A DNA stretch of 64,000 bases, from positions 32,001 to 96,000 of IMG/VR virus record IMGVR_UViG_2593339225_000003, one strand, 5' to 3'. Position numbers and translations under genes: made by a program. Positions within the stretch are counted from its first letter, which is position 1. The number at the start of each line of letters is the position of its first letter. The DNA is from a virus. Lineage: Duplodnaviria > Caudoviricetes. The notes under the pieces were generated by a model. It saw nothing but the letters and a program-made list of their open reading frames with translations, was not told the DNA's origin and did no database searches. This document shows, in pieces, positions 4,905 to 64,000 of the stretch.

Positions 4905-4915
4905 TCAATCACCGC

Positions 4916-5305: not shown

Positions 5306-5329
5306 TCACAAGCACCTTCCTTCTTGGTT

Positions 5330-26728: not shown

Positions 26729-26990
26729 TGTAAAGTAAATTACTTTACATTGTTAAATTTTTAACAATCTTTTACAATATTTTATATTTGTTTACAATCT
26801 TTTACCGCTTTTTACATTGACAAAACTTTAACAATCTTTACCATCTCAATACATTGACAAAAAATTAACAATCTTTTGCATAACATTGTTATTAATTTAA
26901 CAATCTTTTTAGCAGCAATAATATTTTAACATATTAAAGCGTTAAATCATAACCCGCGCGTTATATTGTTAATATTTTAACAATCTTTAG
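26729..26990. repeat. About 6 copies of TTAACAATCTTT plus palindrome TGTAAAGTAA-A-TTACTTTACA
   Basis: Copies near 26761, 26792, 26828, 26865, 26897 and 26977 in a very AT-rich non-coding region. Confidence 0.7.
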
Positions 26991-31949: not shown

Positions 31950-32016
31950 GGTTAGCGTAATGAGGGAGCGGAAATCCCCCTTGTATTTCAAAATCTAAAG
32001 TAAATAACACAAAACA

Positions 32017-34913: not shown

Positions 34914-35603
<690 letters not shown>

Positions 35604-48273: not shown

Positions 48274-48343
48274 AAGTTGGGCTGTCGAAAGGCAGCCTAA
48301 CACAAACAAATTAAAATAAATATCACAAAACATTTAATACGAG

Positions 48344-48985
48344 GTGCAGAAGTTGGGATATTATGTATTGACAAATGGAGAAGGAAGTTACATCACGCTT
48401 GATAAGAGCGGGAATAAGTATATACCAATAAGAAGCTCAAACGCGGCACATAAGTTTCCTGACTTGAAACGCGCAATGAATGTTCTCAATAACTCAATTA
48501 CAACGTCAATCCGCAGCCATTATATGCCCGAGTACCACAAGACAGAGGAAATCGTTGAAAAGATTGAAACGGAGCGGCAAAGCGAAATTTGCTTTCGTGA
48601 AATTGAAAACAACGAAATCGCGGATTGGCAAAAGCGGATTATGCAGTTGCTTGACCTGTTCGGCGGGACGGATAATCGCACAAGTGAACTCTCCGAAAAA
48701 CTGAGCGACGTGGACAAAAAGATTGTAGATGTTGAGCATTATATAGAGTTTGGTAAGTTCAATGCTTATCAAGGTTGGATATGTTTCAAGATGTTGCAGA
48801 ATCTCCTTCAGCAACGCCGGCAATACAAGAACGAAATGCAGGTTTTGCAAAAGATAAAGAGCTGCCCAATATCCAAAGAAGCAATCAAGGCACTTTCGGA
48901 CAGCGTGGCGGAGGCACAGAATAAAGTGTATAAGCCGCGCAAATTCACAGAGTTATTTTCGGGGTGGTCGGAACGAAGAAATTAA
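48344..48985 (+). CDS. Coiled-coil hypothetical protein
   Basis: DVEHYIEF..FNAYQG...RRQYKNE motif. Confidence 0.65.
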   Translation: MQKLGYYVLTNGEGSYITLDKSGNKYIPIRSSNAAHKFPDLKRAMNVLNNSITTSIRSHYMPEYHKTEEIVEKIETERQSEICFREIENNEIADWQKRIMQLLDLFGGTDNRTSELSEKLSDVDKKIVDVEHYIEFGKFNAYQGWICFKMLQNLLQQRRQYKNEMQVLQKIKSCPISKEAIKALSDSVAEAQNKVYKPRKFTELFSGWSERRN

Positions 48986-49109
48986 AACTATGGCTTTATT
49001 ATAACAAGCCGCGAATCCAAATATATCCACATATGTTGTACATAAGATGGCGGGATTACGAATGGATTATTCCGCGAAACAATAATTACTATCGTTAAGG
49101 AGAATTATA

Positions 49110-49391
49110 ATGTATGTACCAAAGCCTGTCGATACGGCAGATGTTACACTAAGTCCTGACATTGTTGAGTTGGGCGAGAAAATTACAGAGAGCGTCCACG
49201 ATGTATGGACGGAAGGTCGGGTTAAAGAGGGATGGACATATGGCGAAACGAGAAATGATGAACTAAAGCAACATCCTTGTCTTGTTCCATATGGAGATTT
49301 GTCCGATTCCGAAAAGGAATACGACCGCAATACCGCGATGGAAACACTCAAACTCATTATGAAGTTGGGCTACAAAATCGAAAAGGTATAA
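49110..49391 (+). CDS. Stand-alone RyR (ryanodine receptor repeat) domain protein
   Basis: YVPKPVD...HDVW...GWTYG..RND..KQHPCLVPY..L..SEKEYDR signature. Confidence 0.9.
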   Translation: MYVPKPVDTADVTLSPDIVELGEKITESVHDVWTEGRVKEGWTYGETRNDELKQHPCLVPYGDLSDSEKEYDRNTAMETLKLIMKLGYKIEKV

Positions 49392-49413
49392 TAATACATA
49401 AGGAGAACAGAGA

Positions 49414-49960
49414 ATGAAAAAAATTACTTGTTGTTGTAGATTTTCAGAATGACTTTATTGACGGTGCGCTCGGAACTTCCGAAGCTGTGGAAATCGTGCC
49501 AAACGTGGTAAACAAAATCAACGATTGGGATGGCGACATCGCTTTTACTGCCGACACTCACGGCGAAAATTACCTTGAAGCCAACGAGGGCAAGCATTTG
49601 CCGGTCGTACATTGCGTACAGAATACGGACGGTTGGGAACTTCGCGCGGAGGTTGCAAAGGCTGTCAAAGAAAAGATGGATGCAAAGGTATTTCAGGGCG
49701 TTTCATTCCTAAAAGATACTTTCGGTTCGCTTGACCTTATGAACTACATTAGCGCAATCGGTTATGAGTATGTTGAGTTTATCGGACTATGCACGGACAT
49801 TTGCGTTGCAAGTAACGCGATTATGGCGAAGGCTTTTCTGCTCGAAGCCCAGATTGTCGTTGACCCGTCTTGCTGCGCGGGCGTAACTCCCGAAACCCAC
49901 GATGCGGCACTTACCACAATGAAGATGCGTCAGATTGATATTTTGGAGGTAGCAAAATGA
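49414..49960 (+). pseudogene. pncA: Nicotinamidase (isochorismatase family), frameshifted
   Basis: Removing one A from the A7 after the ATG restores MKKLLVVVDFQNDFIDGALG; DTH, HC and GLCTDICV motifs downstream. Confidence 0.85.
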
Positions 49961-50540
49961 TTAGGATTAAGGGCGACGAAATCACTTTGTCGAGATTTCC
50001 CGACGGAACTCTGCGCCTGATACCAAATCTTCCCAATATTTCGTTAGAAGAATCATCATAAGCGTATGCTCTCATTGCTTGGAACTACGAGAGCGATGAG
50101 GAAATGGCGGCAATCCTATTCTTGACTAAGCACCTTAAAAATCTTGGATATAATGTCAGTTTGGATATGCCGTATATCCCAAATGCTCGGCAGGATAGAG
50201 TAAAAGGAGAAAATGACGTATTCACACTCAAATATTTCGCGGAGTTCATCAACTCTCTTGATTTCGATAGAGTATTTGTGTTAGACCCTCGTTCTAATGT
50301 TAGCGCGGCACTGATTGATAAAATCATCGTAGAATCTCCCGAATATTATTGTGATAAGGCAATACAGAAAATATATTATGAAATTGAGTTTAGTCCGCTG
50401 ATGGCTTTTTATCCCGATGAGGGCGCAACGAAACGATACTCCGAGAGCTACGGCTTGGAATGTGCATACGCCGCGAAAAATCGCGACTAGCAGACTGGCA
50501 AAATCCTCGGATTATCGGTTTCTCATATGCTGTTCTGAAT
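49957..50540 (+). pseudogene. prs: Ribose-phosphate pyrophosphokinase-like pseudogene
   Basis: RFPDG, MPYIPNARQDR and YPDEGA motifs; in-frame TAA at 50059, TAG at 50488 in KNRD*QTGKILGL; C-terminus missing. Confidence 0.8.
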
Positions 50541-50683
50541 AAGTATATCCGCACAGGAGTATGTGCAGACAGTATTATAAGAGAGCGAATTGTCGCTATG
50601 CACGAAAAGAATATATTTAAGCTGTTACCAATGCCGACATTTCCTTATAATGGGAAAATAACGGTTTATGTGGAGTAATTAAT

Positions 50684-51337
50684 ATGAAATTTCTTAACAG
50701 AATTTTAAAAAAAGAGGTATATAATATGAAATTTAATGTAATCAACAATTCGTCCAACGTCAATGTTGAGGTTAAAGATAATTTGGACGGTTCTGTTGCA
50801 ATTATCGTAGATGTTAAGCCAAATGGCAAACCGCTTTCAGAGTATAAGCCTGGTGAAACCGCAACTATTGGCGAACGTGAATACATCGTCCTCGGTCACG
50901 CAAACGAAACAACTGCGCTTGTTACAAAGGATATTGCGAAAACAATGGAGTTTGGTACTTCCGGCGACTATCGCAAGAGTTATGTGCGTGATTATTGCAA
51001 CGGCGAATTTTATAGGGGACTTGTAAAAGCTGTGGGAGCAGACAATATCATTCCCCATACGGTCAATCTTATGTGTGATGATGGTTCAAATAAGGGCATT
51101 GTATGTAAGGATAATGTATCAATTCTTACTATGGCTAATTATCGCCGCTATCGTGAGCAGCTTCCCGCGATTGGCAAGACGTTCTGGACAGCAACAGACG
51201 TAACTGTTCTCGATAAGGATTACGCTCGCAGCGTTTGCTGCGTCCGTTCCAGCGGTGTTCCGAGCTGGTGTGGCTGTGGCTGGACTTGCGGTGTGCGCCC
51301 GTTTTGTATCTTGAAATCTTCTGTCTTGGTATCTTGA
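50684..51337 (+). CDS. DGR target protein (C-type-lectin-fold-like C-terminus)
   Basis: Ends in the VR with a GVRP motif; probable start at 50726. Confidence 0.85.
   Translation: MKFLNRILKKEVYNMKFNVINNSSNVNVEVKDNLDGSVAIIVDVKPNGKPLSEYKPGETATIGEREYIVLGHANETTALVTKDIAKTMEFGTSGDYRKSYVRDYCNGEFYRGLVKAVGADNIIPHTVNLMCDDGSNKGIVCKDNVSILTMANYRRYREQLPAIGKTFWTATDVTVLDKDYARSVCCVRSSGVPSWCGCGWTCGVRPFCILKSSVLVS
51224..51303 (+). repeat. DGR variable repeat (VR)
   Basis: 80 bp; 10 mismatches to the TR, all at TR adenines. Confidence 0.95.
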
Positions 51338-51353
51338 CATCTTGAACTCTTAA

Positions 51354-51716
51354 ATGGACGAATCACAATTTGAGATAGGAAATAAGGCGGAAAAGTTGTA
51401 TTTTGCGGTGTTTGATGCTACAACCAACCGCCATCATTATCCTGTTAGATTTCGCAGGTTGTCGGACAAGTTGCAAGAATACGCTCTTGATATATATAGT
51501 AATTTAATTGATGCTAATTCATTCAAGGCGGATACTCTGCAACACCGAACAACAAAATATGATTTACAAACTAAAGCAATTACGACTTGTAACAAATTTT
51601 TAAGTTTAACAAGATATAGTTTGCACGCAAAACTAATAAGTTTTGCAATAAGCGAGGAATGGACACGATTAGCACACGATGTTAAATTTATGTCGCTCGC
51701 TTGGAGAAAAACATAA
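51354..51716 (+). CDS. avd: DGR accessory variability determinant (four-helix bundle)
   Basis: 120-aa helical protein between target and TR, ending LAWRK. Confidence 0.8.
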   Translation: MDESQFEIGNKAEKLYFAVFDATTNRHHYPVRFRRLSDKLQEYALDIYSNLIDANSFKADTLQHRTTKYDLQTKAITTCNKFLSLTRYSLHAKLISFAISEEWTRLAHDVKFMSLAWRKT

Positions 51717-51743
51717 ATTAATACATATAGGTTATGCGCTGTT

Positions 51744-51823
51744 GCTCGCAACGTTTGCTACGTCAATTCCAACGGTGTTCCGAACTGGAATGACTGTGGC
51801 TGGACTTACGGTGTGCGCCCGTT
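51744..51823 (+). repeat. DGR template repeat (TR)
   Basis: Non-coding AAC/AAT-rich copy of the VR, 520 bp downstream of it. Confidence 0.95.
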
Positions 51824-51940
51824 CTGGTGGATTAGTGAGGACTATAAATCGCAACAACAGCGATTACAAGGAGTACGCCACATCATCAAAAGAGCGCATA
51901 ACCTTTCTCACGGAGGTTGGGATAAATACAAAAGATTATT

Positions 51941-53362
51941 ATGGATGATTTTCAAACACTTACTGATTTTGGGAATCTCTATAATTCTTACCTTGTTTCG
52001 TTAAAAGGCAAAGGTAAGATAAAGAGTGCGGCGAGATTTAATATTATGGCACTCGAAAACCTTTATGTAATGAAGCAACGTCTTTTAAACCATACATATC
52101 GAATTTCGCCGTATTCAGAGTTTGTAGTTAAAGAACCAAAAGAAAGAATTATAAAATCTGGTTCATTTCGCGATAAGGTATTACAACATTGTTTATGCGA
52201 TTATGTGTTGATACCAAAACTTAATAATGAATTTATACTTGATAATTATGCCGGACAGATTGGCAAAGGTACTTTGTTTGGTTTGGATAGATTATCGAAG
52301 CATCTATTAGATTTCTATTCCGAACGCGGTTGTAATGGTTATATTTTAAAATGTGATATAACTAAATTCTTTTATTCAATTAACCATAATGTAATGAAGA
52401 AATTGATTAAAGAATTATTTACTGATGAGGATATTCAATGGATTTGTAATTCATTTATTGACAGTGTGGATGGTGATGGTCTACCTCTCGGAAATCAAAG
52501 TAGTCAAGTTTTCGCACTTATATATCTTAACGGTCTTGACCATTACATAACCAAGGAATTAGGTTGCAAGTATTATGGTCGATATATGGACGATTTTTAT
52601 TTACTTTCTGATGATAGAGAATATCTCAAAGAATGTTTGGCTAAAATTAAAAAATATTTGGCTAATCTCAAATTAACATTGAATAACAAAACCGAGATTG
52701 TTTCAATGAGTAAGGGAATACGATTTCTCGGATTTCATACATATCTTACCGAGGAGGGCAAGATTATCCGCAAACTTAACAGTGATAACAAAAGACATAT
52801 TAAAAAGCGTTTGAGAAAATATGCAAAGTTAGTTTTTGATGGCAGAATGGAGAGAAAACGCTTTAATGAGATATATCAATCGTGGCGAAATCACGCTTCT
52901 CACGGTAATTGTTTTAAACTGATTTATGAAATGGATTTATTTATGGATGAATTAATGAATGAGCAGAAAACAGAATTAAGAATAATTATTGCCGGAAGTA
53001 GAGATTTCAATGATTACGAATTTCTAAAGAAACAACTGTCTAAATTTATCAAAGACCACCAGAATAGGAGATTTACTATTGTTAGTGGTGCAGCCCGTGG
53101 AGCAGACCAACTCGGAGAGAAATACGCAAGAGAGAAATGTATTCAATTAAAGCGTTTTCCTGCGGACTGGAATAACCTTGGACGGAGTGCAGGATATATT
53201 CGCAATACTCAAATGCTGGATTATATCAAGCAAAATGATTGTGAGGGATATGTATTGGCATTTTGGGATGGTCAGAGCAAGGGAACACGGCATATGATTA
53301 AAACCGCCAAAAAAGCGGGAGTGACCGTTGAAATAAAATTTTTCAAAAAAAAATTAATGTAA
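51941..53362 (+). CDS. DGR reverse transcriptase fused to a C-terminal SLOG (DUF2493/YspA-like) domain
   Basis: RT motifs FRDKVLQH, KCDITKFF, GLPLGNQSSQ and YGRYMDDF; C-terminal IIIAGSRDF...VSGAARGADQLG...AGYIRN...AFWDGQSKGT. Confidence 0.9.
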   Translation: MDDFQTLTDFGNLYNSYLVSLKGKGKIKSAARFNIMALENLYVMKQRLLNHTYRISPYSEFVVKEPKERIIKSGSFRDKVLQHCLCDYVLIPKLNNEFILDNYAGQIGKGTLFGLDRLSKHLLDFYSERGCNGYILKCDITKFFYSINHNVMKKLIKELFTDEDIQWICNSFIDSVDGDGLPLGNQSSQVFALIYLNGLDHYITKELGCKYYGRYMDDFYLLSDDREYLKECLAKIKKYLANLKLTLNNKTEIVSMSKGIRFLGFHTYLTEEGKIIRKLNSDNKRHIKKRLRKYAKLVFDGRMERKRFNEIYQSWRNHASHGNCFKLIYEMDLFMDELMNEQKTELRIIIAGSRDFNDYEFLKKQLSKFIKDHQNRRFTIVSGAARGADQLGEKYAREKCIQLKRFPADWNNLGRSAGYIRNTQMLDYIKQNDCEGYVLAFWDGQSKGTRHMIKTAKKAGVTVEIKFFKKKLM

Positions 53363-53377
53363 ATAGCAAAAAACATA

Positions 53378-53406
53378 TTGACAAAATTTTAGAGTTGTGG
53401 TATAAT
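53378..53406 (+). promoter_or_regulatory. sigmaA promoter of the RNA island
   Basis: TTGACA-17-TATAAT with TG extension, flanked by the operator-like motif. Confidence 0.8.
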
Positions 53407-53576
53407 TCTAAATGTAGTCAAGAGAAGCCGATGTGGGTCGGCAATTCTTAAAATCTTTAATGTAAATAGCACAAAAAATATAAATCGAGTAGTGAGTATA
53501 GAGCCATATGAAGTGCGCCGCGACGTACAACCGTTAGCTGAATCCGTACAAATTCGCTATCGGGCGGCAGAGATTA

Positions 53577-53650
53577 GGAGCCTTGTGTAGTTTGGTTTAG
53601 CATCGCGCGATAGTTAGCGCGGAAAGCAGGTTCGATTCCTGCTGGTTCTG
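53577..53650 (+). ncRNA. tRNA-like element with non-canonical anticodon loop
   Basis: T-arm GCAGG-TTCGATT-CCTGC, stem CGCGC/GCGCG with an 8-nt loop, no CCA. Confidence 0.55.
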
Positions 53651-53795
53651 GCTGAAAAGAAAATCTCTTAAAAGCACAGATTATGAAAAAGTAGTGACAG
53701 GAAAATGAGAATAGAAGAAAACCGTTGATGATACTACGCGCGGGTTGAATCAACCTCTACTCCCATAGGTGAGAGTCCTATGGCTCGATTTTCAA

Positions 53796-53869
53796 TGGGC
53801 TATGGTGTAGCGGTAACACAGCGGACTTTGACTCTGCCATCTCTGGTTCAAATCCAGATAGCCCAGCCA
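53796..53869 (+). tRNA. tRNA-Gln(TTG)
   Basis: GCGGA-CT TTG AC-TCTGC, CCA end. Confidence 0.9.
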
Positions 53870-54220
53870 GAGGTCGAACTGCCTTTAGCCAAAAGAGTTT
53901 GTTTTCATACTTTTGTTTATCGGAAGTAAGGTTTGCGCGTTTTACTTAATAAGAGCGTGGAGTACGGTTTCAATTTAAGCCGAGGGAAGTTTATTCATTC
54001 TGACCTATGGAAAGCGAATGGGTAAGGCAGGATTCGTGCCTTGTATATCGGAGATTACAAGTAATCATATTCCGGGTTGGCTGCGAGATATTGATTACAC
54101 AGATTAGGATGACAACCTACTTTCAACCGCAAAAGATAACAATAGTCAATAAATTTAATGGCTCGCGGCTCGCAAAGAGCGACCACATATTATGACTTTG
54201 GCGGAAGTCGCGGGTTATAT

Positions 54221-54316
54221 GGCGCGGTAATCCTAATTGGTAAGGAGTTGTCCTGCTAAGACAATAGTAGCCGGGTTTATCTCGGTGTGTGAGTTCAAGT
54301 CTCACCCGCGCCGCCA
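54221..54316 (+). tRNA. tRNA-Ser(GCT)
   Basis: TTGTC-CT GCT AA-GACAA, long variable arm, CCA end. Confidence 0.9.
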
Positions 54317-54484
54317 ATGGTTCTCGTTGACCCAGAATAACGAGCGATGCCCAATGAGAAGCGGGCGTGAAGTCTGTCAGTCAGACAATGCTGAGATAGC
54401 GGCTGCGTGTTAAAATGCTTGGATTTTGCGGTTTTTCGCAGAGGATTTCGCGTGAAGAAATGGAGTAAGAAAAACCGTATATAT

Positions 54485-54884
54485 GGGGCTGAAATAGATT
54501 CGACAGGGCGCAGAAAACATATAACTTCGCAGGAATGTAACATCCTTAAAGTACATCTTAAAAATAAACGACACTACTGTTGTTACGCTTCATCCCGCGC
54601 TTTTAGCAGTTCTCGGTCAGAGAGCCGTAGCGTGAGATTCCGATAAGCACCTGCTATTCGGTCTAACTTATCGGACGGAAATAGAATAGCAAACAACGGT
54701 TTCTTGCCTCCGTAAAAGGTAAGTGTTGGAGTGGGTGTAATTCCTTACATCTCCATTCGTTTCCCGCGAATTAAAACAATGTTGTGGTTTGCAGATTGCC
54801 ACGGAGCAAAATCGGCTATTGCGTGAAAAGAGTTAGTGTGGGTATGTGTTTTGGACACGGGTTCGATTCCCGTCAGTTCCACCA
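54485..54884 (+). ncRNA. ssrA: tmRNA
   Basis: 5' GGGGCTGAAATAGATTCGAC, 3' GACACGGGTTCGATTCCCGTCAGTTCCACCA, G3-U pair, internal tag ORF 54570-54635. Confidence 0.92.
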
Positions 54885-54890
54885 GTTATA

Positions 54891-55328
54891 GGGTTAGGCA
54901 ATTTGTTAGTGTGCTTTCCTAATTTGGCATATTACTGTAATGCCAAAGGGAAATGAGGGTTTTGCCAATGCCGGATAGAAAGAGGTTGATTCCGGCTATG
55001 TTTCTAAAGGATGCGGTGCGGAATAGCAGGACTGATATAAGTGATGGAGAAGAAATTCAGAGAAGTTGCTATATGTCGAGGATAAGTAGTCCATCCTGTT
55101 CCTTTTGAAACGAGAATCGACTAAGGGCATCAGGGACTCCCCCGATTGCACGTATTTCGTGCATTACGAAGGCAATAAAGTTAGTAATAACGTGAGCAAC
55201 TATGGTGAGGGAAGGGAGTCGCTGGACAGTGGGAAAGTCCAGGTTTTGAAGAAAGATGAACCAAATCCACATCTATAAAAAGGATTGGTGGTAGTGGAAT
55301 CTTTGTATTCACCCGATGAACCTAACTC
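54891..55328 (+). ncRNA. Candidate large structured ncRNA
   Basis: No plus-strand ORF in the track; closing stem GGGTTAGG/CCTAACTC; several hairpins and crossing long-range pairings. Confidence 0.45.
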
Positions 55329-55401
55329 ACATCGTTAAAAAGAGTTGGTGGTGGGTGTGTTGTTTTTACGACTCCGGACAGCCCGGAAAGACGGGCAATT
55401 T

Positions 55402-55476
55402 GCAGATATGATGTAGCTGGTAGCATATCAGCCTTCCAAGCTGAATGGGCGAGTTCAAATCTCGTTATCTGCTCCA
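55402..55476 (+). tRNA. tRNA-Gly(TCC)
   Basis: TCAGC-CT TCC AA-GCTGA, CCA end. Confidence 0.9.
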
Positions 55477-55653
55477 ATGCTGATTGAGCTGGTGAAAGAC
55501 CTCCCCAACTATAAGGGGTGAACTGTTCGGCTCGTATAATTAGCAGCATAGTTGGTAGCACTACGGTCAAGAAGCTATCCGCGATTGGTGGTTGACGTAG
55601 GGATTTGACAACCAATAACCATCTGACACCTCGGAAAGACGAGGCATATATGT

Positions 55654-55729
55654 GGCGGGTTAGTCAAGAGGTTAAGATACGCGGCTTTCAATCGCGTGAC
55701 GCTGGGTTCAATTCCCGCACCCGCTACCA
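55654..55729 (+). tRNA. tRNA-Glu(TTC)
   Basis: CGCGG-CT TTC AA-TCGCG, CCA end. Confidence 0.85.
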
Positions 55730-55818
55730 TAAGTTCATTTTGAACTTCTTCTCATTAGATAGTTTATTCTTGGATTCGGAATAAATTCATCTTGGCGGCT
55801 CGGAAAGACGAGCAACCT

Positions 55819-55892
55819 GCGGATATGATGTAATGGTAGCATATCAGATTCCCAATCTGATTGTGAGGGTTCAAATCCCTTTATTCGCTCCA
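55819..55892 (+). tRNA. tRNA-Gly(CCC)
   Basis: TCAGA-TT CCC AA-TCTGA, CCA end. Confidence 0.9.
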
Positions 55893-55910
55893 TATAGGTT
55901 GGTGCTGAAA

Positions 55911-56273
55911 ATGATTGAAATAATAATTACATTTGTTGTTCCTATATTACTGAATTTAATAATCATTATTAGTGCAATAATCCAAAATGAAAAAGAGAAA
56001 CAATGTCACGAACACTTACTTCATAGTATTCCACATACTCCTGTTATGGATAAAACTGTGAATGGCGATAGCGATATAAATGAGTTGTTAGAAACTTGTC
56101 TCAAATTGGGTTGTAACGGATTTACTATGAATGAAATGAGAGAGATGCTTAATATAGAGAAAGTTACAAATGATAATATTAGCAAGCCAAAACATTATCC
56201 AACAAATTGTGTGAACTGTGGCGCAGTATTACACGGAAATCAATGCGAATATTGCGGAACGGAATACAATTAA
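55911..56273 (+). CDS. Membrane-anchored protein with C-terminal Zn ribbon
   Basis: Hydrophobic N-terminus and CVNCGA...CEYCG; start moved to 55911 to avoid the tRNA. Confidence 0.6.
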   Translation: MIEIIITFVVPILLNLIIIISAIIQNEKEKQCHEHLLHSIPHTPVMDKTVNGDSDINELLETCLKLGCNGFTMNEMREMLNIEKVTNDNISKPKHYPTNCVNCGAVLHGNQCEYCGTEYN

Positions 56274-56277
56274 ATAT

Positions 56278-56352
56278 GTGGTTGTTGGTGTAACGGTAGC
56301 ACGGTAGCTTGTGACGCTATTAGCGTAGGTTCGACCCCTACACTTCCACCCA
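56278..56352 (+). tRNA. tRNA-His(GTG)
   Basis: GTAGC-TT GTG AC-GCTAT, C discriminator and CCA; acceptor stem has mismatches. Confidence 0.75.
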
Positions 56353-56354
56353 TA

Positions 56355-56429
56355 TGGCGAGATAGTTTAATGGGTAAAGAACACCACCGGAAGGGTGGAG
56401 GCGCAAGTTCGACACTTGCCTCGCCAACA
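56355..56429 (+). tRNA. Atypical tRNA-like gene (5-nt anticodon loop GGAAG)
   Basis: Acceptor TGGCGAG/CTCGCCA, T-arm GCAAG-TTCGACA-CTTGC, ends ACA. Confidence 0.5.
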
Positions 56430-56522
56430 TAAAATTTGTGTGGTGCGTTGCCGAAAAATCGGAGGAAAGCACGATGACCGCGTGGAAAGTCGCGTTGACA
56501 CTTTGGAAAGACAAAGGTATAC

Positions 56523-56597
56523 GCCGATGTAGCTCAGTCAGGTAGAGCAGCGGACGGATAATCCGCGGTGTCGGTGGTTCGATTCCACCCATCGGTT
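56523..56597 (+). tRNA. tRNA-Ile(GAT), G at position 33, no encoded CCA
   Basis: GCGGA-CG GAT AA-TCCGC; canonical D and T arms. Confidence 0.75.
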
Positions 56598-56735
56598 GGG
56601 CTTTAGAAGGTCATACGCCCAACTCACAAGACCTCTCACAGTGATTCGCGACATTGTGGATGCGAAACAAGTGTAATACAACTTGGTTGAGTGCCAAAAA
56701 GTGTTGGGCACCTCGGAAAGACGAGGAGTATACTT

Positions 56736-56811
56736 GTGCGTATAGCAAAATTGGTAATGCACTTGACTTTTAATCAAGAGATTGTCAGTTCGAGCCTGAC
56801 TACGCACACCA
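56736..56811 (+). tRNA. tRNA-Lys(TTT)
   Basis: CTTGA-CT TTT AA-TCAAG, CCA end. Confidence 0.9.
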
Positions 56812-57013: not shown

Positions 57014-59248
57014 ATGAATGTATTAAATGAAATTTTGTTGAGAAGAAAAAATCAGCTCATTCTCGAAAATGTAAACCCGGATTATGGACAGACCGACAGT
57101 GAAAAGGCAATGGTCGGCGCAATCCTCAAAAATGTTCAGTCACTTGGATTTACGTTTGCCCGCGATGTGCTTGAAATTCTGTTTCACTATAACCGCGCGG
57201 AGTTAGAGTCATTCTATCGTGACCTCATTCCCGAGTTGAAGAAACTTGTCGGCGCAGACGTTCAGTACAATCCTATGTACCCGAACTTCCCGCAGCAGGT
57301 AATGGAAGCAAGCGATGCGGAACTGTTCATTAACGCCATTATTCATTATTGGTCGTTTGGAACGCTTCTCCCGCAGTACGAGAAGCAGGAAAGACTGCCT
57401 TTAATTGATGACAATAAAATGACGGTTTTATCGACAGGAAATTGCAAGAACGTAGGCGAAATCTTGCAAAATTTGCTTAAATCTCCTACAAATCTGTCTG
57501 AAAATGACAGAAATGACATAGCAACTTGCATAAAAAATATGCCAAATTATGCAGAATTTTTGCCGGACGAGATTCCGCTCAAAGAAAACGTTGCTTTCTT
57601 GGGAAAACTCATTATTGAGCAAACTCCGATTAAAACCAGCCGAAATATCGAAAAATATTTCAAAACTGCGACAGATGTTCTTCGTTTGGTCACTGCATTG
57701 TCTGACGGCGACATCAGCCTTGCGACAAAGACTCAGTACAGAAACCTTCGTCGAGCAGAACGCAGGATTATAATGAACTTACTTGCAAATTGCGGAAATA
57801 TCTTGGAGGATTTGTACTGCTATAAGTATGAGTGGTTGTACATTGGCAAAATGCTCCACGTTGGCGAGTATTGGTATATGAAGAAGTACAACAACGTCAG
57901 AGGTGCTTTCTATACCTTCCGCAACGAGAAGAAGCCTATGTTTATGGCTGGCAAGGTTCAGGCAGCTATTCTCAAAAACGATATGCTTGAGGCGGCAAAT
58001 ATGCTGAAATCAAGACCCGGCGATTTTGCAAGACAGCTTGACAAGTTGCTCAGAGATAGCGATGAAAAGCACATTGCATATATCACGGCTGCGTTTGCGG
58101 AAGTCGCGGAGAAAGTTTCAACTCCTGTTCTGTTGCAGGTCAGAGAACACTTTATCGAGCGCAAGGGCGAGAAAATGCCTATAAGAGTGTTCTTCCCGAA
58201 GGGCAATGTTGCAAAAGCTATGGTTATCCCGAATGACCTGCCGGCAATTTCTGTCACCGCTTGTCAGCAAATTGTTGATACTTGCAACAAGGCTTTGGTC
58301 GCGCAGTTCAAGACGAAAGAGCCTATGGGTAAGGTTTATATCAATCCCGATTTCAAGAACTATCTCGTGCCGTTCAGCCAGAGAAGCGCAAGTTCCGCGA
58401 ATAAAATCGTTGTGCGCGGAAGTAAGTTGCCCATCAATCCAAAGGCAAAAGCTGTTCGCGGATTTATTTGGTGGACAAATATGGGTAGCAATGATATGTA
58501 CGATGGCAGAGTTGACATTGACCTTTCAGCGGCAATCTATGATGAGAATTGGAACTACGTTGAACACGTTTCCTATACTAATCTCCGCTCTAAGAAGTAC
58601 AACGCTTGTCATTCCGGCGACATCACGAACGGCGGGTCTGTAAACGGCGACGGCGTGGCTGAGTTCCTTGATGTGGATATTGATTCCGTTGCAAGAAATG
58701 CAGGAAGATATATCGTCTATCAGGTTTACAGTTTCACAAGGCAGAAGTTCTCTGAAATGCCCAACTGCCGATTCGGTTGGATGGAGCGTGAGGACGTTGA
58801 TAGTGGTGAAATCTTTGAACCAAAGACGGTTGAGATGAAGATTGACCTCACTTCCGAGAGTGACGTTGCAATTCCCGTTATCTTCGACTGCGTGGAGCGC
58901 AAATTCATTTGGTGTGATATGAACCTCCGCATTGCACAGACGAGATTGGGCGGCAATAACCTTGAAAGCAATCTCAAAGGTACAACTGCTACTTGCTATG
59001 CGCTCACTCATTTCAACAAGCCCAATCTGTATGAGTTGGTTTACCTCAATGCTTTTGCAAGAGGTGAGATAACCACCGACAGAAACGCGGCGGATATTAT
59101 CTTCGACAATGATAAGACGATTCCTTATGAGGTTGTCGAAACCGTTGACGAGGTTACGGGATTACCTTCTCGCACACTCCGCGACAAAACGGAAGTTCCG
59201 ATTATAGACAGCTATAACTTCGATTTTCTTGTCGGAGAGCTGTTATAA
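57014..59248 (+). CDS. 744-aa protein: alpha-helical N-region plus TerD-like C-terminal domain (candidate Ro/TROVE-analogous RNA-binding protein)
   Basis: AGGAG RBS at 57001; PMYPNFP, TATDVLR and RPGDFARQLD motifs; C-terminal DIDLSA, HSGDIT and AEFLDVD as in TerD-type domains. Confidence 0.65.
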   Translation: MNVLNEILLRRKNQLILENVNPDYGQTDSEKAMVGAILKNVQSLGFTFARDVLEILFHYNRAELESFYRDLIPELKKLVGADVQYNPMYPNFPQQVMEASDAELFINAIIHYWSFGTLLPQYEKQERLPLIDDNKMTVLSTGNCKNVGEILQNLLKSPTNLSENDRNDIATCIKNMPNYAEFLPDEIPLKENVAFLGKLIIEQTPIKTSRNIEKYFKTATDVLRLVTALSDGDISLATKTQYRNLRRAERRIIMNLLANCGNILEDLYCYKYEWLYIGKMLHVGEYWYMKKYNNVRGAFYTFRNEKKPMFMAGKVQAAILKNDMLEAANMLKSRPGDFARQLDKLLRDSDEKHIAYITAAFAEVAEKVSTPVLLQVREHFIERKGEKMPIRVFFPKGNVAKAMVIPNDLPAISVTACQQIVDTCNKALVAQFKTKEPMGKVYINPDFKNYLVPFSQRSASSANKIVVRGSKLPINPKAKAVRGFIWWTNMGSNDMYDGRVDIDLSAAIYDENWNYVEHVSYTNLRSKKYNACHSGDITNGGSVNGDGVAEFLDVDIDSVARNAGRYIVYQVYSFTRQKFSEMPNCRFGWMEREDVDSGEIFEPKTVEMKIDLTSESDVAIPVIFDCVERKFIWCDMNLRIAQTRLGGNNLESNLKGTTATCYALTHFNKPNLYELVYLNAFARGEITTDRNAADIIFDNDKTIPYEVVETVDEVTGLPSRTLRDKTEVPIIDSYNFDFLVGELL

Positions 59249-59257
59249 TACAATTTG

Positions 59258-60009
59258 GCGGCTAAGAGATTCCATCCTTCTAATGATAGGTTCAACTCCT
59301 GTTGTAAGTGTGGTTTACAATGTAGGAAACTCAATTTCCGCAATTACACTCATTTTTGCGGCTAAGTGCAATCATCCTTCTATTTTTACATAATGAAGAA
59401 AATAATGCTAACCGTCGTGGTTAGCCCCAAAATTTGATTGCACAATTCCCGCGCTTTAATTCACATCCTGCGGCTAAATCATAACATCCTTCTAAAAAAA
59501 GAACTTGCGCTTTAGGCGCGACTAAATACATAAGATTTTGTTACGATAATTTCCGCAAAAAAATTAATGTAAATAGCAAAAAACATATTGACAGAAATAT
59601 CATTCTATGATATAATCTTAAATGTAAGTTAAACAAACTATTGTGGCTAACAAAATTCATCCTTCTACCCGTATGGGAACAAAATTGGTAGTTTGTCTAT
59701 TGAATTTTGAATTTCCACTTTTACATAGTTTAATCGGCTAAGAAACATCATCCTTCTAAAAAGTGTTAATCTGTTTGTCGTGGGTTCGAGTCCCACCACG
59801 CTACGAATGTAGGGTGTAGCTCAGTTGGTAGAGCAACAGCGAAAAGTCGATGTTTCAATTTCCGAACAATAATTGAATTTGGGCGGCTAACGAGTATCAT
59901 CCTTCTTACAGCTCCAAACTGCAATCGCGGGTTCGATTCCCGCTCATCCAACCTTTGGGTGGTGGTCAAGTGGTAAGACAGCAGTTATGTACGATATTCA
60001 AATTCCCGC
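59258..60009 (+). ncRNA. Six Y-RNA-like scaffold ncRNA units (59258-59341, 59358-59452, 59470-59556, 59643-59718, 59734-59865, 59883-60009)
   Basis: Same consensus with fully covarying stems; the last two contain circularly permuted tRNAs. Confidence 0.8.
59588..59616 (+). promoter_or_regulatory. sigmaA promoter inside the ncRNA array
   Basis: TTGACA-17-TATAAT preceded by GTAAATAGCAAAAAACATA. Confidence 0.8.
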
Positions 60010-60034
60010 AAAATAAATAGCACAAAACATAAAT

Positions 60035-60120
60035 GCGGATATGGCGGAATAGGTAGACGCGCGTGATTTAGGTTCACGTGTCCCTGTGGCGTGTGGGTTC
60101 AAGTCCCTCTATCCGCACCA
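60035..60120 (+). tRNA. tRNA-Leu(TAG)
   Basis: CGTGA-TT TAG GT-TCACG, variable arm, CCA end. Confidence 0.9.
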
Positions 60121-60137
60121 AAATTAAGGAGAACCAT

Positions 60138-60428
60138 ATGAAAAAGATTTTGAGCATTATGTTCACGGTAATTGCAATAACTGGTATAATTTTCACTTTC
60201 GCAAGAGCCACAGCGATTGTCGAAAGAGGAAGTCAAGCATTTGGCGGCGAAATGCTCATTCTTTTAATTCCTGTTATCGCGTGGATTGTTTATTGCAATG
60301 TTAATACTACAAAGCAGGAGTTTAAGGATTACAAGTTGACAGATGAAGCCGAGGGCGCGGGTTATATTGCAAATCCTGATTTCGGTGGGTCAATTCAAAT
60401 CACAGACATTAACGAAATTTCGATATGA
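60138..60428 (+). CDS. Small membrane protein
   Basis: AAGGAG RBS; two hydrophobic helices around ERGSQAFGGE. Confidence 0.65.
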   Translation: MKKILSIMFTVIAITGIIFTFARATAIVERGSQAFGGEMLILLIPVIAWIVYCNVNTTKQEFKDYKLTDEAEGAGYIANPDFGGSIQITDINEISI

Positions 60429-60489
60429 TAATCACCTCCTTTAAAGGCAAAGCGGAAAGACGTTTGACAGCCGGATAGACGGCAAAAAT

Positions 60490-60576
60490 GCGGGTGTGGT
60501 GGAATTGGTAGACACATCGGGTTTAAGCCCCGATGGGCGTTTGCCCGTGCAAGTTCGAGTCTTGTCACCCGCACCA
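60490..60576 (+). tRNA. tRNA-Leu(TAA)
   Basis: TCGGG-TT TAA GC-CCCGA, CCA end. Confidence 0.9.
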
Positions 60577-60579
60577 TAT

Positions 60580-60656
60580 GCTCCGATAGCTCAATAGGTT
60601 AGAGCGTTCGCCTTATAAGCGATTGACGATTGGTTCAATCCCATCTCGGAGTACCA
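60580..60656 (+). tRNA. tRNA-Ile(TAT)
   Basis: TTCGC-CT TAT AA-GCGAT, CCA end. Confidence 0.8.
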
Positions 60657-60692
60657 CAAACATAGTCAAAATCATTTAAGGAGAAGTTTGCG

Positions 60693-62159
60693 TTGAGTAC
60701 AGATAAGAAATACTATAAAATTTCACAATATACAATGAAATGCCGACTTTATCCGAATAAAACGGTTGCTAAAGGTTTTGATAAGGCAATTCAAGCTATT
60801 CATTGTTATCATAATTGCCTTTTATACGATATTTTTAATGGAAACATTGAATCTACTGCAAAGCCATATAAGCCAAAAAAGGAATCAAAGCCTGAGAAAA
60901 AGAAAAATGAAAGCGATTTTGATTATCGGCAACGTCTTTACTCTTATGAACAAAAGCAAAAGTACAAAGAGGGCGATATAATTCATTTCCCGAATTTGAA
61001 TTACGCATTTTCCGCAGAGTATAAGAACAAGTTAATCGAAGAACATCCCGTAATCGCTAATGCTCCGGCTTCTGCAATCACAGCAAAGATTGGTCTTATG
61101 TCCGATGTTAAGAAATCGCTCGGCAAACTTCCAATCGAATTTCAGAAACCAAAGTATTATAGCAAGAAAAAGCCAAGACAGAGTTTTTCTTATCAAGATG
61201 TATTAGGTAAATTAGTTGAAACCGATAATAAAAATGTATTGTTTATTAAACTGCCAGAGAAATTTGGCGGCACACGCTCAAATCCTGCAAAGTGTAAAAT
61301 TCGCGGTTGGAATAAAAAAATTCGTTTTGATAGATACGGGGAAATAAATTTTATAGATTATTTCAAATCCAATCCAAACAAAAGGATTACTATTAAAATC
61401 GAAAAGGATAATTGTGGTGATTATTGGATTGTTTTTTCACTGACCAATGTTTATAAGTCAATGGCAAATCCACAAAATACATTTGGTGGTATTGATGTTG
61501 GAATAAAAGATATTGCTATTCTTTCTGATAATACAAAATTTGAAAATCGAAAATTTAAGGATGAAGAAAAACAGCATATTAAATTTTTGAATAGGCGATT
61601 GAGCAGAAGGCAAGGTTGGTCTAACGAAGAATTTAGAGATGGCTATAAGCAGAACAAAGATATGATTGTATCAAAAACATATCAGAGAACACAGCTTAAA
61701 CTTTCTAAATTACACAGAAAAATCGCTCGTAAGAGGGAGAACTATAATCATAATATAACCACAAAGATTATAAATACATATTCGTTCATTGGTATTGAAA
61801 CTCTGAATGTAACTGGTATGTTTAGAAACAGACATTTATCAAATGCTTTGTCGGATGCCGCTATGGGAGAAATTTTGTCAATGCTTAAATATAAAGCAGA
61901 ATGGTATGACAGAATCATTCAACCCATCAGTCAATGGTCGCCATCAAGTAAACGGTGTAGTTGCTGCGGATATATTAGACCAAAGTTGGGCTTACATATC
62001 AGAGAGTGGCAATGTCCAAAATGCGGAACGTTTCACGATAGAGATGTAAATGCCGCAATAAATATTCTTTACTATGCTTTGTTAATTTATTACGGCGAAG
62101 AAAAAGGCAAAGAAATTTTTGAAAAATTGAATAATAATTTTCAATTATTATGTGCATAG
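60693..62159 (+). CDS. CRISPR-associated TnpB/Cas12f-like RuvC nuclease (488 aa)
   Basis: RuvC-I GGIDVGIK, RuvC-II IGIETL, Zn finger CSCCG/CPKCG and RuvC-III HDRDVNAAINI; adjacent anti-repeat and array. Confidence 0.85.
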   Translation: MSTDKKYYKISQYTMKCRLYPNKTVAKGFDKAIQAIHCYHNCLLYDIFNGNIESTAKPYKPKKESKPEKKKNESDFDYRQRLYSYEQKQKYKEGDIIHFPNLNYAFSAEYKNKLIEEHPVIANAPASAITAKIGLMSDVKKSLGKLPIEFQKPKYYSKKKPRQSFSYQDVLGKLVETDNKNVLFIKLPEKFGGTRSNPAKCKIRGWNKKIRFDRYGEINFIDYFKSNPNKRITIKIEKDNCGDYWIVFSLTNVYKSMANPQNTFGGIDVGIKDIAILSDNTKFENRKFKDEEKQHIKFLNRRLSRRQGWSNEEFRDGYKQNKDMIVSKTYQRTQLKLSKLHRKIARKRENYNHNITTKIINTYSFIGIETLNVTGMFRNRHLSNALSDAAMGEILSMLKYKAEWYDRIIQPISQWSPSSKRCSCCGYIRPKLGLHIREWQCPKCGTFHDRDVNAAINILYYALLIYYGEEKGKEIFEKLNNNFQLLCA

Positions 62160-62340
62160 CACTGATAATAAAAGGGTTGCAGGCACAACGCCGCCCTGTG
62201 CGAGCCACAAGTAACCATAAATTATGTGGGAGGTTCGCACCAAGTAGGCATAAGAAATCGGTAGTATATGCTGTAAAATCGGCAATACAAAGTAGATATT
62301 GCTTATGCAATCACTATATATGCGCGAATTGAAATATCAA
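62160..62340 (+). ncRNA. Candidate tracrRNA
   Basis: 62307-62335 (GCAATCACTATATATGCGCGAATTGAAAT) can base-pair along most of the CRISPR repeat. Confidence 0.65.
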
Positions 62341-62355
62341 ACACAATATGTTGCG

Positions 62356-62806
62356 GTTATAACTCACGGGTATATATGAATTGTGAGGCTTAACCGCGAA
62401 GAACTATTCCAACTCAAATGGTTATAACTCACGGATATATGAATTGTGAGTCAAAAGGCTATCAAGTATTTACTCAAACGTCTTGTTATAACTCACGGGT
62501 ATATATGAATTGTGAGCTTTCTTGACACCAATAATTTTGTCGGTTATAAGTTATAACTCACGTGTATATACGAATTGTGAGCACAAATGGCAATCGTGAT
62601 AATGCTGTTTCAAGGGTTATAACTCACGCATATGTATGAATTGTGAACCCATTCTACTGTATATATGAATTGTGAGTAAGAAAGTCAGAGCAACTGCAAG
62701 CAAGGTTTGGTTGTAACTTGCGTATATGTGTGAATTGTGAACTTTCAGAAAATCCTATTACGATAGGTTGACAAACTGCAACTCACGTGTGTATATGAAT
62801 TGTGAG
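62356..62806 (+). CRISPR. CRISPR array, 32-bp repeat GTTATAACTCACGGGTATATATGAATTGTGAG, 8 repeats (one partial)
   Basis: Repeats at 62356, 62421 (30 bp), 62485, 62550, 62616, 62658 (partial), 62710 and 62775; six unique 33-34 bp spacers plus one 10-bp remnant; repeats degenerate distally. Confidence 0.92.
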
Positions 62807-62906
62807 TACCGATACGTTAAATCAAGATATCACAAATAGCAGGACATTGAATAGTGTTTAGGCATTGAGTAGGAATTATCCCGTTGGAGCGGTATTGATG
62901 ACATTT

Positions 62907-62991
62907 GCGAGCGTGACGGAACGGGTAGACGTTGCAGATTCAAAATCTGTTGCCGAAAGGCGTGTGGGTTCGAGTCCCACCGCTCGTACCA
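62907..62991 (+). tRNA. tRNA-Leu(CAA)
   Basis: GCAGA-TT CAA AA-TCTGT, CCA end. Confidence 0.9.
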
Positions 62992-63148
62992 GCCGTTGTT
63001 GTTCGTTGTTCGCAGCGGCGGCGTTGTTGTTGTTGGCAGAGAACGCGGAAAACTCTGTACAAAAAATATCCGACAAAGGGCAGGGAGCAGAGCCTATGGC
63101 GCGGTGATAACTCTATTCCGCGCACTACAAAAGAAAAGGGCGATTTTT

Positions 63149-63418
63149 ATGACCACTTACGAAACAAGGCGAGAATCCAACAAGAAAGTTGACCGGCAAA
63201 AGCGATACAATCAAATCCTGCACATTCTAAAAGGTCGCACGATGACCGCGAAGGAAGTAGCAGTTGAGATGAACAGGCGCGGATTAACGCCGACATCGGA
63301 ACGAAATTTTGCGGCTCCGCGATTAACAGAGCTTGTGAATGATGGCTTGGTTGAAGTAGTTGGTAAAACTGTTTGCGAATATACTTCCAAGAAAGTGGCT
63401 CAGTATAGATTAATTTAG
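63149..63418 (+). CDS. Small winged-HTH protein
   Basis: MTAKEVA...RNFAAPRLTELV..GLVEVVG motif. Confidence 0.65.
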   Translation: MTTYETRRESNKKVDRQKRYNQILHILKGRTMTAKEVAVEMNRRGLTPTSERNFAAPRLTELVNDGLVEVVGKTVCEYTSKKVAQYRLI

Positions 63419-63475
63419 TCCTTTATTATTCATTCATATGAGTTTCGGACGTTCTCACCAAAAACGTCTACACAT

Positions 63476-63553
63476 ACGGGCATAACTCAGTTTGATTAGA
63501 GTACCTGCTTTGGGAGCAGGGGGTCGCAGGTTTGAGTCCTGTCGCCCGTACCA
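63476..63553 (+). tRNA. tRNA-Pro(TGG), degenerate
   Basis: CCTGC-TT TGG GA-GCAGG and CCA; D-loop lacks GG, T-loop reads TTTGAGT. Confidence 0.7.
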
Positions 63554-63573
63554 AAATTAAAAGAGGGATTGAA

Positions 63574-64000
63574 ATGAGTAAAAAATACAGTGAGTTCGAC
63601 AAACGTATGAAAAAGTATGAATATGTCACGCGAACATATTTGACAACACGAACTCCCGCAATCATTAGGATAGATGGCAAAAGTTTTCATATATTCACCA
63701 GAGGGTTTAAGAAACCATTTGATGATGTCCTTTCCAACGCTATGCAAGCAACAATGAAATATCTTTGTGAAAACATTCAAGGTTGCGTTCTTGGATATAC
63801 TCAATCAGATGAAATCACATTGGTTTTAGTTGATTATAAGGGTATTGATACTTGTGCTTGGTTTGATTACAACATTCAGAAATGTGCGAGTGTTGCCGCA
63901 AGTATGGCTACATTGGTATTTAAGCAGTTTTTTGATTATCAAAATAATTGTTGGTATGAAAAATCAGATAAGGGTAATTCATTTACGAGTTCGGATATAG
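63574..64000 (+). CDS. tRNA(His) guanylyltransferase Thg1-like protein (partial, runs off the window)
   Basis: My translation: RMKKYE...IIRIDGKSFHIFT..FKKPFD...GYTQSDEITL...WFDYNIQK; not in the ORF track. Confidence 0.9.
   Translation, partial: MSKKYSEFDKRMKKYEYVTRTYLTTRTPAIIRIDGKSFHIFTRGFKKPFDDVLSNAMQATMKYLCENIQGCVLGYTQSDEITLVLVDYKGIDTCAWFDYNIQKCASVAASMATLVFKQFFDYQNNCWYEKSDKGNSFTSSDI

Follow-up and report, generated by a model that had tools for sequence, protein, structure and literature searches.

Systems termed TranC, for transposon-CRISPR intermediate, and the LaTranC system are reportedly from the work of Jin et al., Cell 2025, 188:6283. Four reports describe them as TnpB lineages that became associated with arrays when the transposon RNA was split to yield the tracrRNA (trans-activating CRISPR RNA) and the crRNA (CRISPR RNA) (PMC13565253, PMC13639567, bioRxiv 10.1101/2025.09.28.678669, bioRxiv 10.64898/2026.03.27.714800). 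According to one of them, TranC nucleases are compact RuvC enzymes of about 300-600 aa of IS605/IS607 descent, the LaTranC single-guide RNA (sgRNA) has Stem1-3 and a triplex in a 157-nt scaffold, and LaTranC constructs have a 5'-TTC protospacer-adjacent motif (PAM) (bioRxiv 10.1101/2025.09.28.678669). Another gives TranC clade 11 repeats of 32-36 nt in arrays of 3-17 repeats, and describes CauTranC9, in which a Caudoviricetes genome carries a TranC-type nuclease and a small array, a system that its authors read as serving superinfection exclusion (bioRxiv 10.64898/2026.03.27.714800). The locus considered here lies in 64,000 nucleotides of a Caudoviricetes record (IMG/VR IMGVR_UViG_2593339225_000003, positions 32,001 to 96,000; hereafter the window), whose + strand carries in order tRNA genes, a 488-aa open reading frame (ORF), a 196-nt gap, a CRISPR array and tRNA-Leu(caa). 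We read this locus, with a probability of roughly 0.78, as a prophage-borne TranC-type (type V-like) module that is self-contained. Judged from its sequence, the system falls within the published TranC kind, of which it would be a new and divergent member (about 36% identity), and does not belong to Cas12f. The gene and the elements of its product are as follows.

60680-60684, + strand: ribosome-binding site AGGAG, from reading of the sequence, 8 nt upstream of the TTG start
60693-62159, + strand: TranC-type (TnpB-derived) nuclease gene, 488 aa, TTG start
60855-60983, + strand: Lys-rich insertion, about residues 55-97, from alignment A3
61494-61496, + strand: RuvC-I Asp268 (GIDVGIK), invariant in alignment A2 and aligned with the column of the first catalytic Asp in ISDra2 TnpB
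61797-61799, + strand: RuvC-II Glu369 (IGIETLN), invariant in A2 and in the Glu column of ISDra2 TnpB
61956-62024, + strand: Zn finger C422, C425 ... C441, C444 (CxxC...CxxC), invariant columns in A2
62043-62045, + strand: RuvC-III Asp451 (HDRDVNAA), nearly invariant in A2 and in the HDRD column of ISDra2 TnpB

The protein itself points to TranC. Its best matches among PDB chains are LaTranC 9jfo (E 3.3e-66, 227 bits) and 9jfq (E 8.4e-66), in three segments across residues 5-462; ISDra2 TnpB is matched at E 3e-39 and Cas12f chains at E 4e-4 to 5e-3. Pfam places OrfB_IS605 at residues 259-379 and Cas12f1-like_TNB at 393-458, and the NCBIfam model guided_TnpB matches residues 18-460 (214 bits, cutoff 100). 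Three further NCBIfam models remain below their cutoffs: IS200_TnpB (202 vs 425), C2c8 (82 vs 350) and IS607_TnpB. The PADLOC profiles for Cas12u4 and Cas12f match the RuvC part only (150 and 143 bits), the latter over residues 209-463. Membership of Cas12f was rejected, since the system falls below the family models and lacks an extended anti-repeat duplex. The Lys-rich insertion is confined to the window and one relative, L006, among the nine N-termini aligned in A3, and the protein ends about 25 aa beyond RuvC-III.

L006 is an IMG/VR contig whose homologue of the protein is 71% identical and has a nearly identical repeat behind it in five copies, its homology to the window running from the start codon and ending within the array. 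Between the two genes nonsynonymous (dN) and synonymous (dS) divergence are 0.19 and 1.04 overall (ratio about 0.18); in the C-terminal half they are 0.020 and 0.56 (ratio 0.04; proportion of synonymous differences, pS, 0.394). Nucleotide identity is mosaic, at about 65% up to nt 850 and 85-100% beyond. The nuclease is intact and, on this pattern of substitution, selectively maintained.

Arrays are conserved in a clade of relatives as well as at this locus. A search of 5.8 billion proteins returned 7999 scored candidates, 2090 of them homologues at E<=1e-20, of which the best 120 are 40-96% identical; the 90% cluster of the window protein has 31 members. The clade-specific N-terminal alignment A3 brought up 57 loci in metagenomes and none in a sample of 400 further genomes of the host family. 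A scan of genome contigs with a profile from A2, an alignment of 21 sequences, was swamped by generic TnpBs and yielded L110 as its sole full-length relative. The clade was set by score alone (at least 230 bits to the query; 35 distinct proteins, 31 with at least 600 nt of downstream DNA), and an array was called where at least two strict repeat copies began within 420 nt of the stop codon. By this measure 29 of the 31 testable members have an array and 20 have three copies or more, whereas among other TnpBs (151 distinct, 142 testable) seven have at least two copies and three at least three. The two clade members missed are L022, in which a repeat search saw degenerate copies, and L021/L183.

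The same grouping emerges from a maximum-likelihood tree whose 42 rows are the window, 27 rows of the clade and 14 TnpBs from outside it (duplicates and truncated ORFs excluded, midpoint root only). The 28 clade rows, window and LaTranC-like rows included, are split from the 14 array-less TnpBs by a 100/100 branch, and 26 of them have arrays; of the remaining two, L183 lacks one and L196 offers too little downstream sequence to judge. Within the clade the window groups with L006/L233 and L200 (support 100/99). Over 536-542 residues the LaTranC-like proteins of L204 (E 9e-197) and L213 (E 5e-218) match LaTranC 9jfq, and they are 35-38% identical to the window protein. Kinship to LaTranC, a shared scaffold architecture and the single array-bearing clade together argue that the recruitment was shared with the described lineage, and an identity of about 36% argues that it is old.

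An earlier note on this DNA, made from the sequence alone, had recognised a 488-aa TnpB-family protein with the three RuvC acidic residues and the Zn finger, all borne out by A2 and by alignment to ISDra2 TnpB, and its wider picture of a TnpB-derived, array-associated compact nuclease with a predicted helper-RNA scaffold between gene and array holds as well. Its label of Cas12f-like does not survive Cas12f chains at E of about 1e-3 and Cas12 profiles that cover the RuvC part only. Nor does its suggestion of an independent and recent recruitment of TnpB agree with LaTranC as best relative, a common scaffold plan, about 36% identity and one 100/100 clade. The phylogeny it had called for nests the window in the array-bearing clade with the LaTranC-like proteins, and the lack of arrays in close homologues, which it had named as evidence that would count against its proposal, was not what was found (29/31 against 7/142 for other TnpBs).

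The same data bear on whether the gene is simply an IS200/IS605 TnpB whose omegaRNA serves transposon maintenance and whose neighbouring repeats are incidental. The general TnpB family is indeed the best curated profile, PHROGs labels the protein a transposase, and the degenerate repeat that closes the scaffold (R0, below) resembles, with its 20-nt tail, an omegaRNA end. However, the only trace of TnpA in the genome bin is a 22-bit fragment on another contig, the gene is single-copy, the 36 nt between the upstream tRNA and the start codon leave no space for a left end, and the array repeats pair better with the scaffold loop than R0 does. Together with the conservation of arrays in the clade, these points make such a TnpB highly improbable. 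Membership of an IS200/IS605 transposon was rejected for want of a TnpA neighbour, for the single copy and for the IS200_TnpB score under its cutoff.

The case for a TranC-type module rests also on the gap between gene and array, for which the following elements are predicted or observed.

62160-62355: gap from gene to array, 196 nt
62170-62335, + strand: predicted tracrRNA or right-end-element RNA (reRNA)-type scaffold, from conservation, covariation and fold z-score
62174-62180 / 62190-62196, + strand: predicted scaffold stem 1
62184-62188, + strand: putative pseudoknot 'anti-repeat' CACAA in the stem-1 loop, complementing TTGTG, the 3'-terminal pentamer of every repeat in the array
62198-62204 / 62234-62240, with inner helix 62205-62209 / 62225-62229, + strand: predicted scaffold stem 2
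62248-62254 / 62302-62308, + strand: predicted scaffold stem 3
62302-62335, + strand: R0, a direct but degenerate copy of the repeat, joined to the scaffold and ending AATTGAAAT
62336-62355, + strand: 20-nt stretch separating R0 from R1, with conservation in L006 and L200

The gap is under a constraint of its own, since the window and L006 share 97% identity there whereas synonymous sites in the adjoining C-terminal half of the gene differ at 39%. The three-stem scaffold, ~165 nt long, has a fold z-score of -2.9, and downstream DNA of 23 loci follows a shared plan. On alignment A4, whose 17 non-redundant rows each start at the stop codon and run through the first array repeat, RNAalifold recovers stems 1 and 2 and a hairpin within the repeat. 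The model tested consists of stem 1, stem 2 and a pseudoknot that joins five positions of the stem-1 loop to a pentamer in the repeat that stops two or three bases short of its 3' end. Across the 17 loci 92.5% of its 321 cells are paired, against 79.0+/-1.1 for shuffled alignments (0/500 shuffles reach 92.5%) and 23-47% for slid controls, and 12 of the 19 pairs are altered on both sides. For the pseudoknot helix alone 96.5% of cells are paired and all five pairs are altered on both sides, in sequences that are related and may represent perhaps three or four independent switches. Stem 3 is kept across loci as a helix of 6-8 bp with at least six distinct sequences.

Loop and first array repeat pair at all five positions in 15 of the 17 loci, in four sequence versions: TTCAA/TTGAA (nine loci), CACAA/TTGTG (the window and L006), CTCAG/CTGAG (L025) and TCTGT/GCAGA (L204, L110 and L213). 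The exceptions are L231, with four of five pairs, and L200, whose first repeat has three of five in the alignment register, or four of five by eye one base over, and whose later repeats carry TTGTG. L200 mixes two repeat types in its array, and L025 has three separate mini-arrays with differing repeat 3' ends (2827-2924, 4609-4905, 5153-5320) around one TranC gene. Where the earlier note had placed an anti-repeat in the gap, whose length of 196 bp it gave correctly, the complement that stands is the 5-nt loop CACAA. An extended duplex is absent on the + strand, the best repeat:gap pairing (-15.4 kcal/mol) being matched by 234 of 500 shuffled repeats. A minus-strand anti-repeat (-21.7 kcal/mol, 22/500 shuffles as low) spans a large internal loop and was judged not meaningful.

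In every compared locus the scaffold continues into a repeat-like segment equivalent to R0. The R0 pentamer still fits the loop in five of the 17 loci (L184, L022, L023, L026, L024) and not in the other 12; in the window it makes three of five pairs (TTGAA against CACAA). R0 recombines with the array, to judge from L022, where the spacer directly after R0 is the one found after the next repeat in L023. In the window, L006 and L200 R0 is trailed instead by a conserved 19-20-nt stretch and no variable spacer; this conservation led us to reject the stretch as an acquired spacer, and it may be a leader or the remnant of an ancestral guide. TranC systems can use a reRNA-type single guide as well as array crRNAs; the candidate for the former here would be R0 with its 20-nt tail, which makes three of five loop pairs. 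R0 reads as a remnant of an ancestral single-guide RNA end. We infer that in the sublineage of the window the loop and the array repeats switched jointly from TTCAA/TTGAA to CACAA/TTGTG and that R0 retained the old TTGAA; the cis 'single-guide' mode therefore looks disabled, with the split tracrRNA and crRNA mode under selection.

The 20-nt stretch also raises the thought that gene, scaffold and array form a selfish cassette that spreads or is retained in a homing-like manner, or that a 20-nt guide linked to R0 acts in regulation, with defence not the main role. Close relatives do hold the module at differing tRNA-island sites (after tRNA-Ile(tat) in the window, after tRNA-Pro in L006 and L200), the L006 homology is bounded by the start codon and the array, the phage is rich in homing endonucleases, and the 20 nt are conserved in three loci. 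Yet the 20-mer has no convincing target: in the host bin it makes six seed-level matches against about 0.8 expected (for equal base use, in a genome that is AT-rich), the best full match is 15/20, and as a regulatory or homing guide it was set aside for having seed-level matches only. R0 moreover pairs poorly with the loop, and variable spacers favour adaptive targeting. We consider this account very unlikely, and a TranC-type module in which array-derived guides are used remains our reading.

The array that would supply those guides occupies 62356-62806.

62356-62806, + strand: CRISPR array of seven full repeats (32 nt), one half repeat and six full spacers
62356-62387, + strand: R1, 32 nt
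62421-62450, + strand: R2, 2 nt shorter
62485-62516, + strand: R3, 32 nt
62550-62581, + strand: R4, 32 nt
62616-62647, + strand: R5, 32 nt
62658-62676, + strand: half repeat, 19 nt, 3' half, preceded by a 10-nt spacer stump
62710-62741, + strand: R7, 32 nt
62775-62806, + strand: R8, 32 nt

The eight repeats that the earlier note had counted are thus seven and a half, and its spacer length of 33-34 nt holds for all six full spacers. A 3' half repeat after a 10-nt stump implies an internal deletion, and the gene-proximal end would be the leader end because the last repeats are the most mutated. Tandem Repeats Finder reported nothing for 62000-63000, as expected of repeats separated by unique spacers, and the copies were located by a separate repeat search. 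The window, L006 and L200 have the scaffold in common and no spacer, and relatives with near-identical scaffolds carry wholly different spacers, a sign of array turnover.

Several observations weigh against a working module. Erosion has set in at the far end of the array, as the half repeat and two mutated repeats show, and no protospacer for the six spacers was found in the host bin, INPHARED phages or PLSDB plasmids. The pseudoknot has just 5 bp, and its pairing model was derived from the same sequences on which it was tested. L021/L183, at 51% identity, lacks a downstream array. A promoter scan of the window is at chance level (11 sites vs 10.7 expected), and the RNA reads in its favour are contigs of a relative, for which DNA carry-over is possible. 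These contigs come from metatranscriptome run X23: one of 178 nt (depth 11.3) covers 62217-62386 and then enters a different spacer, and one of 151 nt (depth 2.4) covers 60699-60845, together a weak hint that the locus is expressed. Consensus TTGACA-17-TATAAT boxes lie directly upstream of stem 1 only in the relatives L022/L186/L195. Among promoter-like matches in the region the best one (TTGATA-16-TATAGT, 10/12) is on the minus strand at 62313-62340, across R0 and pointing into the scaffold. In L021 (= L182/L183) a shortened scaffold-like stretch follows the stop codon, and four 35-nt repeats with a spacing of 54-67 nt lie upstream of the gene (2708-2917 and 4300-4430 of L021).

Further spacer searches were likewise negative. 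Five matches in 400 family genomes (E 0.002-0.01) are at chance level for 401 genomes, 400 genomes of the order gave none, exact 20-mers of the first two spacers (S1, S2) found no target in IMG/VR, no target emerged for spacers across all collected relatives' loci, and the relatives' arrays have none in the window genome. The role in inter-phage competition that the earlier note had put forward thus gained no protospacer from these searches. The locus could on this evidence be a decaying relic inherited with the phage, which neither acquires spacers nor protects, its array a fossil and its nuclease kept for another reason or only transiently. Half and mutated distal repeats, spacers without a target in the databases searched, the lack of adjoining adaptation genes and a dissimilar host type I-B repeat would all fit. 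Decay is nevertheless hard to reconcile with strong purifying selection on the protein, a scaffold more conserved than synonymous sites, covariation of loop and array repeat within the window's own sublineage, and the wholly different spacers behind near-identical scaffolds. We therefore regard a relic as unlikely and favour a maintained TranC-type module, which looks functional.

We propose that in such a module the scaffold would be transcribed as a tracrRNA, from a promoter possibly overlapping the last codons of the gene, and the array in the same direction as gene and scaffold. The crRNA would comprise the small hairpin of the repeat, its 3' pentamer and a guide of 33-34 nt, and would dock on the tracrRNA by way of the 5-bp pseudoknot together with contacts to the protein. 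By analogy with LaTranC the ribonucleoprotein would be expected to cut PAM-flanked double-stranded DNA matching the guide, and its likely use would be defence of the lysogen or prophage against other mobile DNA. New spacers may enter through adaptation proteins supplied in trans or through recombination.

A more ambitious reading joins these elements. The pseudoknot pentamer would be an 'identity code' that pairs a TranC scaffold with its own array, and the sublineage of the window would represent the last step from transposon to CRISPR, in which the joint switch to CACAA/TTGTG stranded R0 (TTGAA) and abolished the cis single-guide mode. The codes TTCAA, CACAA, CTCAG and TCTGT would make co-resident systems orthogonal, the cassette would move whole in phage tRNA islands, and arrays would turn over without Cas1/Cas2 of their own. 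We advance this combination tentatively and think it has rather less than an even chance of being right.

The genomic setting identifies the carrier. The window corresponds to positions 126489-190488 of a 207-kb contig, whose first ~94 kb hold bacterial housekeeping genes (RecR, DnaX, RF-1, PGK, TIM, ValRS, PFK, PTS and similar); beyond ~94 kb come lysins, tail proteins and an integrase, with a major facilitator superfamily (MFS) transporter and LigA near 200 kb. Phage genes in the window include portal, large terminase, head protease and homing endonucleases. Since bacterial genes flank phage genes, the phage DNA is not a free contig but integrated, as one prophage of ~100 kb or as two elements side by side; 'phage-encoded', the term of the earlier note, is right as to the type of element and needs changing to prophage. 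The note's observation that neither TnpA nor an adaptation gene lies in the window extends to the whole genome bin, where Cas1, Cas2 and the 22-bit Y1_Tnp fragment of TnpA occur only on contig C56 (G000) and the TNB domain is single-copy. C56 bears a type I-B locus at about 47300-55610 (Cas6, Csx8, Cas7, Cas5, Cas3, Cas4, Cas1, Cas2) with three repeats dissimilar to those of the window array; its Cas1 was detected only as a C-terminal half ORF and may be frameshifted.

The position between tRNA genes, also given in the earlier note, is confirmed by the flanking features.

60490-60576, + strand: tRNA-Leu(taa), ARAGORN and Rfam tRNA matches
60580-60656, + strand: tRNA-Ile(tat), ARAGORN and Rfam tRNA matches
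62907-62991, + strand: tRNA-Leu(caa), right flank, ARAGORN
63003-63027, + strand: terminator-like hairpins behind tRNA-Leu(caa), the sole ones of the region

tRNA-Ile(tat) is missing from a related metagenome contig (joint 60583>60658), and relatives in DNA runs include some without it, with fewer repeats and with other spacers following R1; in runs X23 and X24 uncovered stretches are uninformative. Rfam gives only tRNAs above threshold in 59000-64000. At 59760-59943, where ARAGORN finds no tRNA, there are sub-threshold Rfam matches to YrlA (Y RNA-like; E 1e-7, 44 bits where the gathering score is 69) and to two tmRNA 3'-end fragments, which may be tRNA-like or Y-RNA-like elements. Two islands of the prophage, 53796-56811 and 60035-63553, together hold 18 tRNA genes and one tmRNA (54485-54884). 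A gene for a Thg1-like tRNA-His guanylyltransferase starts at 63532 and overlaps tRNA-Pro. Upstream of the tRNA/tmRNA island, 51941-53362 (+) encodes a 473-aa protein in which a reverse transcriptase (RVT_1) is fused to a SLOG-type YAcAr domain, and which looks like a defence-type reverse transcriptase. Array-like spaced short motifs in AT-rich intergenic DNA at 26760-26988, 34940-35080 and 35438-35572 (TTAACAATCTTT; TAAGACTATTCTTAATT) were rejected as CRISPR because the motifs at 26760-26988 and 34940-35572 are short and AT-rich; they may be phage promoter, operator or origin repeats. In LaTranC-like loci a GC-clamped hairpin of 40-44 nt (L204 5845-5888, L203 210-253, L206 3209-3248, L222 3205-3248) follows the array in some and precedes the gene by ~270 nt in others; it may act as a terminator or mark a cassette boundary.

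The locus would add to TranC a divergent prophage-borne branch, with an enzyme of 488 aa, lacking a C-terminal extension and about 36% identical to the characterised one, whose defined scaffold model makes it testable as a compact editor. Pairing of loop and pentamer would provide a concrete, testable rule for matching scaffolds to arrays. R0 would be a natural case of an apparently switched-off single-guide remnant, which bears on the origin of type V CRISPR from transposon RNAs, and the arrays raise the question of how spacers are renewed in phages without Cas1/Cas2.

Comparison with known systems sets the locus apart from more distant relatives first. With Cas12f (V-F) and Cas12n (V-U4) it shares a miniature TnpB-derived effector and a tracrRNA, here predicted, between gene and array; it differs from Cas12f in the weak chain matches, the C2c8 score far under its cutoff and the lack of a long repeat:anti-repeat duplex. 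ISDra2 TnpB (PDB 8bf8, 8h1j) has the same RuvC/Zn-finger core with conserved DED columns, and its omegaRNA/reRNA likewise carries the guide 3' of a structured scaffold beginning near the gene end. The window, unlike ISDra2, has neither TnpA nor transposon ends, a single gene copy, an array in place of a single guide and a larger N-terminal half. CauTranC9, compared here by its published description, is also a phage-borne TranC-type nuclease with a small array, but is ultra-compact, without expanded domains, and has 38-nt repeats; the repeat length and copy number of the window fall within the ranges quoted there for TranC clade 11. LaTranC is the closest solved relative, and the window lies in one array-bearing clade with the LaTranC-like L204/L213 proteins. 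The order of gene, ~200-nt scaffold and short array without cas1/cas2 is common to both, and the LaTranC-like loci L204/L213/L110 show the same succession of stem 1, pseudoknot, stem 2 (GTGCGA...TCGCAC) and stem 3. The differences are those of a separate branch: the window protein lacks the ~100-aa C-terminal extension of the LaTranC-like proteins (in alignment to LaTranC these reach chain residue 567), is about 35-38% identical to them and has the Lys-rich insertion near residues 55-97, its pentamer is CACAA/TTGTG where theirs is TCTGT/GCAGA, and its module, unlike that of LaTranC, is borne by a prophage in a tRNA island.

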